In this document: in pieces, positions 21,661-33,000 of the stretch | Position numbering within the stretch: the first letter of the stretch is position 1 | Layout: the number at the start of each line of letters is the position of its first letter | Assembly: GCA_037379345.1 (NCBI GenBank) | Contig: CM074519.1 | Location: forward strand, 26,996,103 to 27,060,102 | DNA from: Perna viridis | Lineage: Eukaryota | DNA: 64,000 nucleotides | Direction: 5' to 3' | Program-made: the position numbers and the translations under genes | The notes under the pieces: generated by a model | Database searches by the model: none | Seen by the model: the letters and a program-made list of their open reading frames with translations, nothing else | What the model was told of the DNA's origin: nothing

Positions 21661-22501
21661 TGAGTATTTTAGAGACCCTTTTTTTTGCATATGAAATGAA
21701 ATCATTGTTTTCTGTGTGTTAACTGCCCCAGTGCAATAACATTCCAAGAATGCAGATAACATGTTATTTGCCCTCTCATGGGCGTCACTACCATCAATTC
21801 CGCACAACTGTTCAAAACGTTATTTAGTTCATAGGCGACTCCACAGTCGATTTGACATAACATTTAAAATTGCATATTTTGTTTTAAGTATCACAGCAGT
21901 AGCCCGGGATTGAATATATCAGGCAGTAGGAACAATGGAAAATCGATGAATTGCTGATATATAATCACCTGCTTTTATAGTAGAGATGAAACTGCTATAG
22001 GCACAAAGAAATGTCAAATGAAACAGAAACACAGAATCAACAGAAATGACACATTTCATCCAGTAGCTTTTTAATCGATTTGTTTCAAACGCAAAATCGG
22101 TAAATTATTCCTTGTTATGAGAATGAATGATATCATTTTTTTTTCTTAACCATGCTTATCACGCCCATGAGTTGCATAAGTTAGCAAAAATGTTGAATCC
22201 CCATTTTGGCCTTTTTGCTTATATCAACTATGCCTATACATTTCAACTGTCGAATCTAGTATTAAATTAATATAGGATTTTATTTTGCTTGTCTATTATT
22301 AATCAATGTGTAAAATCAGACCATACATCAACACAACAAAGGATTGTCATGTAAGCAAACCAGTTTCTGAACATAGGTGTAAAGAGAAATTTTTGAGGTG
22401 AAAAGGGGGCTTCTGTCAATTAAATTGTGTATGAAATATAAACAATAACAAGAATTACACCTTTACTACATATTCCAAGGACGAAATAGTTGACAACCAT
22501 A

Positions 22502-22628
22502 AGTAGTTTCAAAAGGCCACTTTTCAAGGGGAAATCCTGCGTAGGACCCCCAACCCCGACGGCCGGATGCAAACGGACGGCATTCCTATTGAGCATAGGG
22601 TAAATACGAGAATTATGACTTTCGTACA
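22502..22628 (+). repeat. Left terminal inverted repeat (127 bp)
   Basis: Reverse complement of 29945-30088 except one substitution and a 19-nt-to-2-nt replacement after AGTAGTTTCAAAAGGCC. Confidence 0.95.
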
Positions 22629-22734
22629 CTATGGATTCGTTAACATTCCCACAGATGGGGATGACTTCATCAGTGAAGACGCCTTCCAGGAAAAGCTGCA
22701 GGATCAGAATCAGGAAGCACTCAAATGGAAGGAC

Positions 22735-23168
22735 TTACCCACCGGCAACCCCAGCAACTTTAGATTCATCGATGTCATCATCCTCCAGGCCTTTGCTCAC
22801 TGCATCTTCGATCTTGGATTGGTAGGATCTGACGATGCGCACGGTATCTTCATGCTTTTTACGCTTTTGGCGGATGCGCTTGGCTAACACCGCCAACCCC
22901 GCCATCGTGATGGAATTCACGACGGCTAGTGAGCTCAACGGAATGCATGCCACGGCGCCTATCCCCGTTGCGGCGGTGCTGAGTGTGCCAGTGGTGCAAA
23001 CTACTTTGAGTACTGCACAGGTACCCAGAGCAAAAGACACCGCTTTTTCCACTCGTTTATAGTTCCTCGACAGTCGAGCATACTTATGCTTTTCAGATTC
23101 AAGCTGTTTCTCGATCGACTCGATTCTAGCTTCTCGGTAGGATTGCTTCCCCAAGTCTACTCGTCCAT
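22735..23168 (-). pseudogene. Adintovirus 'gasdermin-X'-like putative membrane-active protein (5' frameshift, C-terminally truncated)
   Basis: Coiled N-terminus (RIESIEKQLESE...LSRNYKR), Gly/Ala-rich hydrophobic hairpin, then KKHEDTVRIVRSYQSKIEDAVSKGLEDDDIDE, matching the family's KH..I..LA.SKL..I...ISKAL.D..I...EF pattern as I recall it. ATG at 23168 is out of frame with the body. Confidence 0.65.
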
Positions 23169-23178
23169 TTATCTATAT

Positions 23179-29600: not shown

Positions 29601-29761
29601 GGGTTGCTCTTGCAGAACTGCCCGTTCTTCCTCTTGAGTTCGTGGTCGCAGGTGGTCTTCTGCTGCCCTGGTTGATGCTCAAATTGCAGCCTCATCGGTT
29701 GCGCACCGCAATTTTGACACTGCTGGGTATGCTCATCCACCTGCGGTGAGGTTGGGGGCAT
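26638..29761 (-). pseudogene. Protein-primed DNA polymerase B (pPolB) with N-terminal TP/OTU-like region, C2HC-type finger and endonuclease VII insert; many frameshifts and stops
   Basis: GSGW; KNEDDRCF; QHYCWI; CRRC...EHMEYC; ExoI YADFE; CHIC...RDHDHLTGKYRGAAHNQCN; ExoII FHNLSGYD; ExoIII YLETDV; Pol motifs LDANNLYG, KLMNNSVFGK, FTDTDS, KLY, KAKGV. Confidence 0.93.
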
Positions 29762-29944
29762 TGCAGCACTGCTGCTGCTTTTGGGGGGGATGGGGTGCTA
29801 CCCTCCAAATCTTCTTCATTCTCCAGAAAGAAATCCATCATATTTCTTTCGGATGTCATATCTTTATTGGTATCAATCTGTGACATCCTTCCCTTTAAAG
29901 TGTCCTTATCCACATCCCCACTATCTTCTGGGACGATCTGACTC

Positions 29945-30088
29945 TGTACGAAAGTCATAATTCTCGTATTTACCCTATGCTCAATAGGAATGCCGTCCGT
30001 TTGCATCCGGCCGTCGGGGTTGGGGGTCCTATGCAGGATTTCCCCTTGAAAATTGGGGGTGGTGTAGAATCGGCCTTTTGAAACTACT
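29945..30088 (-). repeat. Right terminal inverted repeat (144 bp)
   Basis: Ends in AAACTACT, followed by the TSD ACCATA. Confidence 0.95.
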
Positions 30089-33000
30089 ACCATAAATTTG
30101 TTCTATCAGTCTCTTTATAAAAGACAATGATTGTAATCTTTCGTCGGCGTTTTGGGTTCGAGAGCTCCATTAGAATCCATACAAACTACGATTCATAGTT
30201 GGTTCTGTAAATTGTACCACCAAACCTCTTTCGGAACTAACCTCCATTTTTATAGCTGTTAAAGAGGATTATTAGTCTGAGCACGACACTTGTACCTATC
30301 AAAGTGGTAATGATTCAAGGTGGAACCAGAAACATTCGACAGTAAATATATTAGATTTTTTTTTATCGACAAGATATTTTTTCCGTTGCAGTGAAAGTTT
30401 TTTTCAAAAGAGTGTCGGTTTTGTAATGAGTACACATAATGTTTCGCTACTCATTTTTTTTCAAGTTTATGTAGTTGACTTAATAGCTAATTTTATCCAA
30501 AATAAAAAGGACTTCGTTCAGCCAGATCCTTTGATCTCAGTTTCAGCTATTGCGACGGTTTGAGTAAAAACAATTCTAGATTCAAGGATTTTATAAAACA
30601 CACCCCTTTACCTTGGAGAAAATGATACTAGACACTATATGGTCAGCCTCACGCATTGACATACTCTTAGAGTTCGATGGAAAGCTAAAACTCATGACTT
30701 GCATGTAACTATACGACAAATGCGATGAATTATCAGGACGTAAACTCTCCTTTCATCTGTGGCATCATCTATGTATAGAGTTTTTATATCACAACTAAAA
30801 CATTATGCCAGAGCTTGCCGGAAATACACAGACCTTTTACAATTGGCTTCCAAAACAAGGTTATTGTCATACAAGATTGAAGTAATAACTACAAAACTTT
30901 CGTGGTCGTCACCATGATATCGTGGATCGTTATTGTGTTTCCATCTCACCAAGAAACCAATTTTTTACACTGTCATAGTTTTCTTCTTTTGTCACCCAGG
31001 AAATCTTATTTTCAGTAACTCGGTGGGAGTTCTAGAAAAACGGGATGCTTACCCTACTGGTGCACCTCGTCTATGCGCCAAGTTTGTAGTGGTTATTTTT
31101 AGTAATTTCATGTGTTCTTTGTTCCCTGTATTTATTGTCTAATCGTTATCCCTGACCTTTTTTCCTTTTTATTACCGTCCGCATCGTTGTTCCTTTATTT
31201 CACTTTAAATGGCCCCATCGTTTTTCCAAGCTATGGAAGTGTTGTCTTGTCAAGTATGAAAGTGAGAGGAATAACCGCCAGGCAGTACACAAAATGTACG
31301 ATGTGGTGCGAGGAATAAACGCCAAACAGTACGCAAAATTGCAGTGTAAAGTCTTGAAAAACGAAACAGGAAACCTAATCTAGAACAGAAAATGTTAAGC
31401 GTGTGCAATAGTGTTTTAGTGTTTTGAATTTTGTGTAATTGCAAATTTCGCTTCATGGTTTATATCATAATTCTACTGAAAAAAAAACAAACGCACGGTC
31501 CTCCACTCCACAATCATTGTTATCGATCGATTAATACATTATAGAAGTCATAAAAATATTACAAATGTTGTTATAATTAACATGCATTTAAAGCGGTATT
31601 CTCTCATCAGCAAAACGAGGACCAAATACATAGCTTATCGTAACCCAAAAACAAAAATAATCAAATGCATACAAAAACATTCTTAAAATCAAAATTGTCG
31701 AAAATAGAAGTCATAGCAATAACAAATAATTAAGATCATGTGCAATGCAAGAAATGAAGCCTAAATGTTTAATTTGTTTTGATATTGCAAATTTCGGTCA
31801 ATAATCTGTACTTTGATTTAAGTCTGACTAATATGTTGGTACATATCCTCGATCTATGGCTGTGGCATCGGCCAAATTGTTTATAACAATATATTTATGA
31901 ACAATGCTAATTTTATTATGGGGTTATATTTCACACATGCATCAAGGATTAACGATTTCATCAGCAGTATTAGAACAAAACGCATTACACTCGAAATCAA
32001 GAAATGAGCTGTATACAAGGAAGTGAGTGAAAACAAAATCATAATCCAAAGTTGGTGTTCAACATGTGCAGTCCTCGTGAGCGCAATTTCCTTTAAACCA
32101 ACTAATTACTTGATACAATGTTTAAGCTAGATTAGGAATTATATACAGATGTGCATAAGTAAGACAATGTCAATGAGGTTTAAATACCAGCCCATGTAAA
32201 ATTCAGACACTGGCTAATGTAGAAGTGATTCATGGTGTAGAAAACCCCACCGAACAAATGATTTTTTTGATCTTCATATGCTATACTTTCAAGTAAAAAT
32301 AGTCCTTTCTGTATTCAGATCTGTACTTTAGAGAAAACCATACATTGATCTCCAAATCAAAGCAACCAAATGAAATCGAATCAAGAATGATAACTCTTAC
32401 AAAGTGCCAATTACATAAACAATCTCTATATATATTTTATCTCAAAAGTGCAAGAACCAAATGATAAACTAAGACAAGATTTGCGGTCTGTAATCTTTAC
32501 GGAGTGATAAATAAAAGTAAAAATGGTGGGTTTTTGACATGTATGAATCAACCCTGTCTGATTATTATAAAGACTGGTACTTAAATAATTAATGTTAACT
32601 GAAACCAAAGGGGAAGGATTGGTTCAGTGAACCCTATTCTCAATATATCTACTTTAACGCTAGGTGTTTATTTTTATATATAAAACGAAAACATCCTATT
32701 TTCACGTATGGCTCGTTGTGTATAGTATGTAGTTCTGGTTCTCTGATAGAAACAACCAACATGATGTCCATCAGTAGATAACGAAAGATTATATCCAAAA
32801 GGAATGAAACAGCCTTTTTACTCGTAATAGAGATCTAGAGACTAATAGGGAAATCTTCTGCAAACACGAAATGTTAGACAGACGAACTGTAAATTAAATT
32901 AAACGCCAAAGAAAAACAATATCAAAGGAAATCGTCATTTCAGAAATTAACAGATTTAAAAAAAGCGTCAGTATTATTTAACTTTTATTTAACTTCCTAA

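Follow-up and report, generated by a model that had tools for sequence, protein, structure and literature searches.

An inserted element with intact ends and broken genes

Between positions 22502 and 30088 of the window (the whole 64,000-nt stretch of Perna viridis DNA analyzed here) lies an element of 7,587 bp with both ends intact. It is flanked by a perfect 6-bp target-site duplication (TSD; ACCATA at 22496–22501 and again at 30089–30094), and the flank composition puts the probability of such a 6-mer match by chance at ~4e-4. A first-pass annotation of this DNA had proposed the duplication, the AGTAGT termini and a sharp GC-rich island, and all three are confirmed in the sequence: GC content is 52.4% within the element but 33.2% and 33.9% in the 5 kb on either side, placing the element 19 points over its host. 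The terminal inverted repeats (TIRs) measure 127 nt on the left and 144 nt on the right; of the single indel and single substitution said to separate them, the indel (17 nt) holds but the substitutions number two. Strong CpG decay was sought in the element and not seen (2.6% vs 2.0%).

Gene order and strands are as first described (Table 1). Most of the virion module had been thought still readable, a claim that fails because every gene still present is broken: ORF A and the pX-like, penton, fibre-like, protease, integrase and protein-primed polymerase (pPolB) genes are each disrupted by a frame break, a stop or a deletion, and the ATPase, PLA2X and 5′ part of the major capsid protein (MCP) gene are gone. 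ORF A has a frame break at its 5′ end and has lost its 3′ end to a ~490-nt deletion. The largest deletion removed the 5′ part of MCP, the cupiennin-like and PZ-like ORFs, a 181-aa ORF, the ATPase, PLA2X and the integrase 5′ end; searches within the window element found no match for ATPase, PLA2X, the cupiennin-like and PZ-like ORFs or one unknown ORF. The longest one-frame stretches cover 86% (penton), 95% (pX-like) and 69% (MCP) of their probes.

Table 1. Features of the element and its insertion site, in window coordinates.
Feature	Position	Strand	Basis or remark
Left target-site duplication, ACCATA	22496..22501	.	Sequence
Left terminal inverted repeat	22502..22628	+	AGTAGT end; 17-nt deletion near 22518
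Unknown ORF, 5′ remnant (60 of 134 codons)	22567..22745	+	Start inside TIR; tblastn with sibling ORF
ORF A (first annotated as gasdermin-X-like)	22747..23168	-	Predicted long two-helix hairpin, hydrophobic turn
pX-like 192-aa core-protein gene	23179..23756	-	Repeated xGG/GxGL motifs; frame break near 23724
Minor capsid protein (penton)	23761..24518	-	Frame break near 24415-24425
Double-jelly-roll (DJR) MCP gene, 3′ remnant, 238 codons	24533..25249	-	Pfam PF21738
Junction of largest deletion (median 3.6 kb)	25242..25244	.	
rve integrase-chromodomain remnant	25243..25843	+	Deletions of 46 nt and ~236 nt
Fibre-like coiled-coil ORF	25894..26334	-	One internal stop; label from weak phage tail-fibre matches only
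Adenain-like cysteine protease remnant	26339..26637	-	5′ end deleted, two stops, frame break
pPolB region	26634..29940	-	Pfam PF03175
Right terminal inverted repeat	29945..30088	-	ACTACT end
Right target-site duplication, ACCATA	30089..30094	.	Sequence; junction found in public contigs

Identification of the gene remnants

Identities of pPolB, integrase–chromodomain, MCP, penton and protease were supported by Pfam, PDB or fold searches. The polymerase scores 34.9 bits against PF03175 in a window frame and 45.8 in one from a sibling (cut-off 25.8). Cys and His motifs, which may represent a vOTU, are visible by eye in PolB; Pfam gave no N-terminal OTU match for PolB from three full-length relatives or for two frames from the window. 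For the integrase, a sibling frame scores 38.6 bits with rve (cut-off 32.6) and 36.5 with chromo, and the window remnant, which alone falls under the Pfam cut-off, is 87–94% identical to that frame. The MCP remnant aligns with positions 94–316 of the 316 in PF21738 (E 1.4e-44), i.e., the 3′ part only. Searches of the PDB with phmmer were uninformative for the penton, the MCP remnant, ORF A and the pX-like protein, and penton identity is settled by predicted fold alone: its model (pLDDT 85.9) returns a PDB fold list filled by the mavirus penton (E 2.4e-6) and adenovirus penton bases. The top three of seven PDB matches to the sibling protease ORF are adenovirus proteases (the best, 1avp, weak at E 0.017), and in the alignment to 1avp the His and Gln/Cys motifs match.

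Among the genes seen only in siblings, the packaging ATPase exceeds the cut-off for Pox_A32 (26.8 bits) and PLA2X frames match PF08398 at 29–33 bits (cut-off 23.9); the Pfam match of the cupiennin-like ORF is sub-threshold. Also weak are the Adeno_PX match of the pX-like protein (1/15 members, E 0.017) and the best tail-fibre match of the sibling fibre-like ORF (E 0.0011), and the ORF starting in the TIR has no match in Pfam or PHROG. Profile and fold searches yielded DJR MCP, penton, pPolB and (weakly) adenain, and the first-pass annotation was right in describing a chromosomally integrated element of Polinton/adintovirus type bearing MCP, penton, protease, integrase and pPolB.

Its gasdermin-X label found no such support. 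Gasdermin is absent among the listed Pfam, PDB and fold matches for ORF A and the pX-like protein, and a wide structural search with ORF A listed 50 matches with no gasdermin, returning generic coiled coils (best Z 11.5). The ORF A model consists of long helices and is predicted to fold as a long helical hairpin.

Siblings define a parent family of about 13 kb

The element belongs to a family represented by dozens of copies in this genome. We examined 22 siblings, picked from the best TIR matches, out of about 55 ATPase-bearing places (counted by eye, E <= 1e-20). Their sequences cover the whole length of the element at 82–97% local identity, with extra DNA at each junction, and the element's own length plus the median deletion sizes gives a parent of 13.0 kb; full length in this family is ~12–13 kb, short of the 15–20 kb first taken as usual. 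Relative to this parent, the window copy has suffered nine deletions totalling ~5.4 kb. Between them they cost it five genes (the packaging ATPase, PLA2X and three more) as well as the 5′ part of its major capsid gene. No sibling retains an open pPolB frame (0/22, best 45%); because only 22 of about 55 places were examined, open copies may exist elsewhere in the genome. Barreat and Katzourakis define an intact autonomous Maverick by core ORFs that are all present and open, which excludes the window copy and all 22 siblings.

The deletions are private to the window copy. None of the nine junction 32-mers occurs in any of the 22 siblings, whereas 16 of 18 control 32-mers are present in 3–22 of them (of the two that are absent, one is host-flank sequence). 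Across four junctions, searches of the whole genome gave the window alone as a full-length match among the 40 scored of 102, 131, 66 and 91 candidates. Each short sibling carries its own different deletions, and three of the 15 siblings with both ends are even shorter (3.9–6.9 kb); 11 of these 15 have perfect 6-bp duplications of their own.

Relationship to known elements

As a derived copy, the element displays the features of Polintons/Mavericks (Polintoviricetes): TIRs with an (AGT)2 end, 6-bp TSD, pPolB, rve integrase, DJR MCP, single-jelly-roll minor capsid and adenain-type protease, with the ATPase in the parent family. Two alpha-adintovirus features accompany these, a pfam03175-type PolB and PLA2X in the virion module (in sibling frames; deleted in the window copy). 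Polintons of this sort are already well known.

The closest named proteins to the window polymerase are from Mytilus (87–88% identity), followed by sea anemones and corals, and in a tree of database matches only, the polymerase nests inside Mytilus sequences (97/95 support), in keeping with the mollusc lineage first guessed. Near-identical open capsid and core genes occur in many public assemblies. Starrett et al. 2021 (PMC8502044) map "Mytilus mussel" and "Stylophora coral" alpha adintoviruses (Supplementary Fig. S2A); the family, Adintoviridae, is now Eupolintoviridae, order Amphintovirales (PMC12451622). Alpha adintoviruses and animal Polintons share with our parent family a PF03175-type pPolB, rve integrase, ATPase, adenain, hexon, penton, PLA2X, a fibre-like ORF and TIRs, whereas the window copy is without ATPase, PLA2X or any open gene. 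The parent family also pairs PLA2X, the alpha hallmark, with a cupiennin-like ORF, given as a beta hallmark in PMC8502044. Our comparison with the published Mytilus adintovirus is one of gene maps, not of sequence.

Vertebrate Mavericks, as far as the available text of Barreat and Katzourakis 2021 (PMC8097293) describes them, likewise have (AGT)2//(ACT)2 ends, 6-bp TSDs, mostly decayed copies (96% such fossils) and purifying selection on capsid genes in an active lineage; the ~13-kb parent differs in gene order and in its invertebrate host, and sits at the low end of their 12.7–24.6 kb. Bivalve genomes hold 107,631 viral regions, 58.5% of them assigned to Orthopolintovirales, according to the accessible part of a preprint (bioRxiv 10.1101/2025.04.19.649669) that contains, in that part, no description of this family or locus. 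Literature searches found no publication on exactly this family, no pattern match to the polymerase turned up in a viral contig collection, and a term search of PMC11071296 returned none of six gene or host names. Because Starrett et al. list a Mytilus alpha-adintovirus and bivalves are rich in such elements, the lineage is not clearly undescribed, contrary to the first suggestion. A single locus carries little weight here, decayed Polintons being the rule and very many in bivalves; the ~13-kb family is of use as a marker, a dated insertion burst with clean ends in a shellfish-type genome.

Origin of the shortened copy

The best explanation, to which we assign a probability of roughly 85%, is a Polinton/Maverick (alpha-adintovirus-type) insertion with intact ends and 6-bp TSD and with every gene broken, in which a full-length ~13-kb element was likely integrated in the germline and then decayed in place. 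By analogy with known Polintons, the parent would have been copied by protein-primed synthesis from its AGTAGT ends and inserted by its rve integrase, hence the 6-bp duplication, and would probably have travelled in jelly-roll capsids that the ATPase filled and the protease matured. Deletions may have followed insertion through host break repair (junction overlap is 0–3 nt at most junctions), leaving a copy that is presumably inert now; the order of deletion and insertion is itself beyond the reach of a single copy.

It is unlikely, though conceivable, that the copy is instead a non-autonomous or defective-interfering derivative, some deletions having arisen during replication and the shortened molecule, with both origins, having been inserted by helper proteins. 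Both ends and the duplication survive despite the loss of 5.4 kb of interior, many siblings are shortened too, and polB-less polintons are reported to have remained mobile in insects (from the available part of 10.1101/2025.02.07.637071). Yet intact ends are partly why such copies get spotted, no junction is common to the 22 siblings or the best genome-wide matches, and the short siblings are each deleted differently; the same internal deletions in several insertions, the mark of a non-autonomous Polinton subfamily, were not seen.

Very little favors an assembly artefact, in which mis-joining produced the element or base errors its frame breaks. The right junction is present in contigs of all three DNA-type runs compared, from three studies. 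These contigs begin 30 nt within the right TIR and continue, unbroken and with no other letters, across 440–460 nt of flank at about flank depth (122, 52 and 10); the contig pieces listed do not include the left junction, and just left of it depth is little or nil in two of the three runs. Single-base frame breaks could be long-read errors, but at two such positions roughly single-copy depth is left for the form found in the window (about 150 for X1, 65 for X4), and the duplication is perfect at both ends. A chimera is disfavored as far as testable, the right junction being confirmed in three runs. No joint skipping the whole element is among the 15 listed (of 92), and the assembly has no paralogous empty site because the left flank occurs in it only once; neither a particle nor a free end nor an empty site was observed for the element.

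The first-pass view, a virus from an undescribed lineage that is naturally compact at 7.6 kb and has most of its virion module in working order, is scarcely credible, and in its strong form refuted by the siblings' extra DNA at the junctions and the broken genes, for all that long open stretches persist in penton, pX-like and MCP genes and the literature searches found no paper on exactly this family: there is no ATPase and no MCP start, the parent is ~13 kb, and the Mytilus relatives include an adintovirus already mapped (PMC8502044). The window copy is a fossil of the ~13-kb family, its length the result of private decay.

Selection and transcripts

A crude within-genome count over 19 copies and 2,928 codon columns (not a branch model) separates two classes of variant (Fisher p 5e-16). 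Variants specific to one copy lie close to neutrality (1110 N / 575 S with 71 stops; calibrated omega 0.75, short of 1), whereas those that copies share show constraint (137 N / 192 S with 5 stops; omega 0.28), including those in the capsid genes (MCP 20 N / 32 S, penton 6 N / 10 S). Purifying selection thus acted on variants common to several copies, capsid genes included. For the window copy alone the contrast is non-significant (private 61 N / 30 S vs shared 25 N / 22 S, p 0.14). Capsid constraint while the element spread bears on the question of whether animal Polintons move as particles.

The run search listed no RNA run containing the element. One raw RNA run, of which 19% was read, placed about 25 reads on the element, too few for an expression call; all are of one strand and differ from the window, and they therefore probably come from other copies.

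More speculatively, the parent may represent a mussel-infecting DNA virus lineage that underwent a germline burst a few million years ago, crossed between mussel lineages and still circulates, with ORF A as a membrane-active accessory protein; we regard this composite picture as doubtful. In its favor would count the polymerase's position within Mytilus sequences, the 19-point GC excess over the host, the purifying selection on capsid genes during the spread and the near-identical open capsid and core genes in public assemblies. Were the mussel relatives too similar for shared descent, the family would offer a case of host switching among bivalves. The ORF A model has its nearest folds among iridovirus proteins of unknown function and two-helix membrane proteins of the SLATT type.

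Structure of the insertion

The element is an insertion with both ends present and a 6-bp duplication around it; all genes remaining in it are broken. As the first-pass annotation had described, ACCATA directly adjoins it at both sides (chance of such a six-base match ~4e-4), its ends read AGTAGT and ACTACT, and it forms a GC-rich island (52.4%, with 33.2% and 33.9% over 5 kb on either side). The terminal inverted repeats (TIRs; 127 and 144 nt) were thought to differ by one substitution and one indel; the single indel, of 17 nt, stands, but there are two substitutions. From either end, an ORF that begins at one start codon within the TIR reads into the element.

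Features of the window by position
Feature	Position	Remark
38-bp tandem array	1938-2401	host flank
Very high-copy short interspersed repeat	3845, 7063, 10241, 20851, 21492	several copies, host flanks
Collagen repeat exon	14612-15040	host, Pfam
Element	22502-30088	7,587 bp
ORF from left TIR	22567-22745	
Endonuclease_7-like insert	28380-28490	HNH-type, in pPolB
ORF from right TIR	29695-30006	leads towards polymerase gene
Galectin domain exon	47074-47433	host, Pfam
Second Gly-X-Y stretch	near 50527-50901	seen by eye only
Fibrinogen C-terminal domain exon	61441-61812	host, Pfam

Parent family in the same genome

Searching the genome with the left TIR, a check proposed at first pass, yielded siblings of up to 13.2 kb (121 candidates; all 40 scored matched, with many facing pairs 10-13 kb apart), and an ATPase probe found ~55 separate places at E <= 1e-20 (counted by eye; 150 scored of 170). 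The 22 copies that we read were picked from the best TIR matches and are a biased sample. In 15 of them both ends lie within the fetched sequence; lengths run from 3.9 to 13.2 kb (median 11.6 kb), three of the 15 being shorter than the window copy, and the 6-bp duplication is perfect in 11, matching at five of six positions in two and at four of six in two. Pairwise divergence among most copies is 3-6%, and their divergence from the window copy is 3.3-6.8%; one copy reaches ~8% from it and three reach 12-13%. Relative to the main group, three copies (L035-L036, L038 and L040) diverge by 11-14%, and two of these differ from each other by 7.8%; they are taken as at least one putative further subfamily, older or separate, that shares the family's ends.

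The family gene order is TIR, pPolB, protease, fibre-like, chromo-integrase and PLA2X (both on the other strand), ATPase, 181-aa ORF, PZ-like, cupiennin-like, major capsid protein (MCP), penton, pX-like, ORF A, TIR, where "PZ-like" and "cupiennin-like" are labels we presume; the cupiennin-like ORF has only a sub-threshold antimicrobial-peptide match. In siblings (L003:5673-6461, L007:5619-6140, L012:2185-2529) the integrase is immediately preceded by a DUF5679-PLA2 gene, and the amphipathic cupiennin-like ORF is present as well. Starrett et al. make PLA2 a hallmark of the alpha virion module and cupiennin-like of the beta; this family joins both. This gene set is also frequent outside the genome: among 33 metagenome loci of at least 5 kb with a penton (drawn from a penton alignment, 80 kept of 474), pX-like occurs in 31, ATPase in 30, PLA2 in 28, integrase in 27 and ORF A in 5.

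Origin of the window copy

The window copy aligns to its siblings over its whole length, with nine stretches missing (~17, 492, 3,626, 46, 236, 354, 31, 91 and 549 nt); restoring these gives 13.0 kb. Overlap at the deletion junctions is 0-3 nt at six and ~8 nt at one, and one junction is complex. In the largest deletion five genes are gone, ATPase included, and the MCP gene, cut at mid-length, is fused to the integrase. When probed with natural sibling ORFs, all remaining genes prove to be interrupted by a frame break or a stop, or to lack an end; the virion module had been taken as largely readable, which it is not.

According to PMC11071308 and PMC8097293, Polintons replicate from repeated end motifs by protein priming, insert through an rve integrase and encode a capsid module. 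We infer, with a probability of about 0.85, that a full-length family member inserted here, that the copy then shed pieces one at a time, and that what remains is now inert. Alternatively, an already shortened, helper-dependent molecule may have inserted, which we consider improbable; none of the nine junctions was found in the 22 siblings (16 of 18 control words were), and genome-wide searches with four junctions returned only the window itself as a full-length match (40 scored of 102, 131, 66 and 91 candidates).

An artefact is very improbable. The window sequence is free of N, and in three DNA-type runs from three studies unbroken contigs, free of alternative letters, extend from 30 nt within the right TIR across 440-460 nt of flank, and their depths (122, 52 and 10) are near those of the flank; 30 nt is one short of the bridging criterion used, and one run may be the assembly's own source. 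The left junction was not seen among the 24 contig pieces listed (71,899 more exist), and depth just left of it was little or none in two runs. The unbroken junction contig suggests, short of proof, that no empty allele is common in the sampled runs. In run X1, summed contig depth over 22420-30099 relative to single-copy flank was ~10x that in X4 or X6, a ratio that is not copy number and that deeper sequencing may explain; X12, a run under a different species label, contained 0.25 of the words of 21500-31000, which could reflect flank repeats or else a closely related element.

Least credible of all is a compact working virus of 7.6 kb; siblings of up to 13.2 kb and nine private deletions speak against compactness. 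The first-pass observation is partly confirmed and its interpretation partly supported: the Polinton-type two-ended insertion survives.

Selection and age

With four divergent copies set aside, 19 copies were compared over 2,928 codon columns in 13 ORF stretches. Single-copy variants comprised 1110 non-synonymous, 575 synonymous and 71 stops, and variants in at least two copies 137, 192 and 5 (p 5e-16); omega is 0.75 for the former versus 0.28 for the latter (neutral ratio 2.56 from four-fold sites), these being variant counts made without a tree. The capsid genes follow the same pattern (MCP 20/32, penton 6/10). For the window copy alone the private/shared contrast is not significant (p 0.14). 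Of 7,248 columns, 99 (1.4%) show a substitution private to it, and it differs by 3.2% from the column majority; its age would be a few million years at an assumed yearly rate of roughly 1e-9 to 1e-8 per site. The pPolB frame is interrupted in all 22 siblings.

Relatives and host

The element is a further member of the known Polinton/adintovirus group. Starrett et al. (2021; PMC8502044, Supplementary Fig. S2) place a Mytilus element among the alpha-PolB adintoviruses, and this family may already be named there. Other sources give Eupolintoviridae as the family's present name (PMC12451622), >100,000 such viral regions in bivalves (10.1101/2025.04.19.649669) and Mavericks in every mollusc genome analysed (PMC10294476); related literature includes PMC11131425, 10.1101/2025.02.07.637071 and 10.1101/2023.08.22.554363. 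Among the matches listed for mussel adintoviruses and for mussel, bivalve or Mytilus polintons, we found no paper on this family.

The closest named polymerases are from Mytilus trossulus (88%) and M. galloprovincialis (87%, 77% and 69%), followed after a gap by Nematostella, Exaiptasia and Orbicella at 53-55%; Mytilus is also named among the penton and pX-like matches. In a midpoint-rooted polymerase tree (37 rows, including 35 of the 120 listed matches) two Mytilus proteins join the family (97/95) within a nine-row clade (100/100) that contains all four Mytilus-named rows. The collagen, galectin and fibrinogen-C exons fit a bivalve host without proving it, and a switch of hosts by the family is accordingly no more than a possibility. 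That a mussel virus crossed hosts and still circulates seems doubtful.

Gene identities

MCP matches PF21738 (E 1.4e-44); pPolB (PF03175) scores above cut-off, as do integrase and chromodomain in sibling frames. The window's own 219-aa penton frame gives a model (pLDDT 85.9) whose predicted fold corresponds to the pentons of mavirus and adenovirus. For the protease, adenovirus enzymes rank first to third among seven PDB matches (best E 0.017), their catalytic motifs aligning with its own, and the fibre-like ORF has weak matches, to tail fibres only. The pX-like gene (192 aa) has 1,858 relatives with conserved GG/GxGL motifs and weak links to Adeno_PX.

ORF A (306 relatives) had been called gasdermin-X-like, yet no gasdermin appears among its listed sequence and fold matches. 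Its confident model (pLDDT 91.6) predicts two ~60-residue helices joined by a hydrophobic turn. Among viral folds, uncharacterised proteins of iridoviruses come closest (E 4e-6), and there is a weak resemblance to SLATT two-helix membrane proteins. Because GasderminX carries a pX-like domain at its own C-terminus (PMC8502044, section 3.2), the earlier gasdermin-X and pX labels may be a single label spread over two ORFs. Besides its Endonuclease_7-like insert, pPolB has Rho_N repeats near the N-terminus, and many cnidarian relatives have the same.
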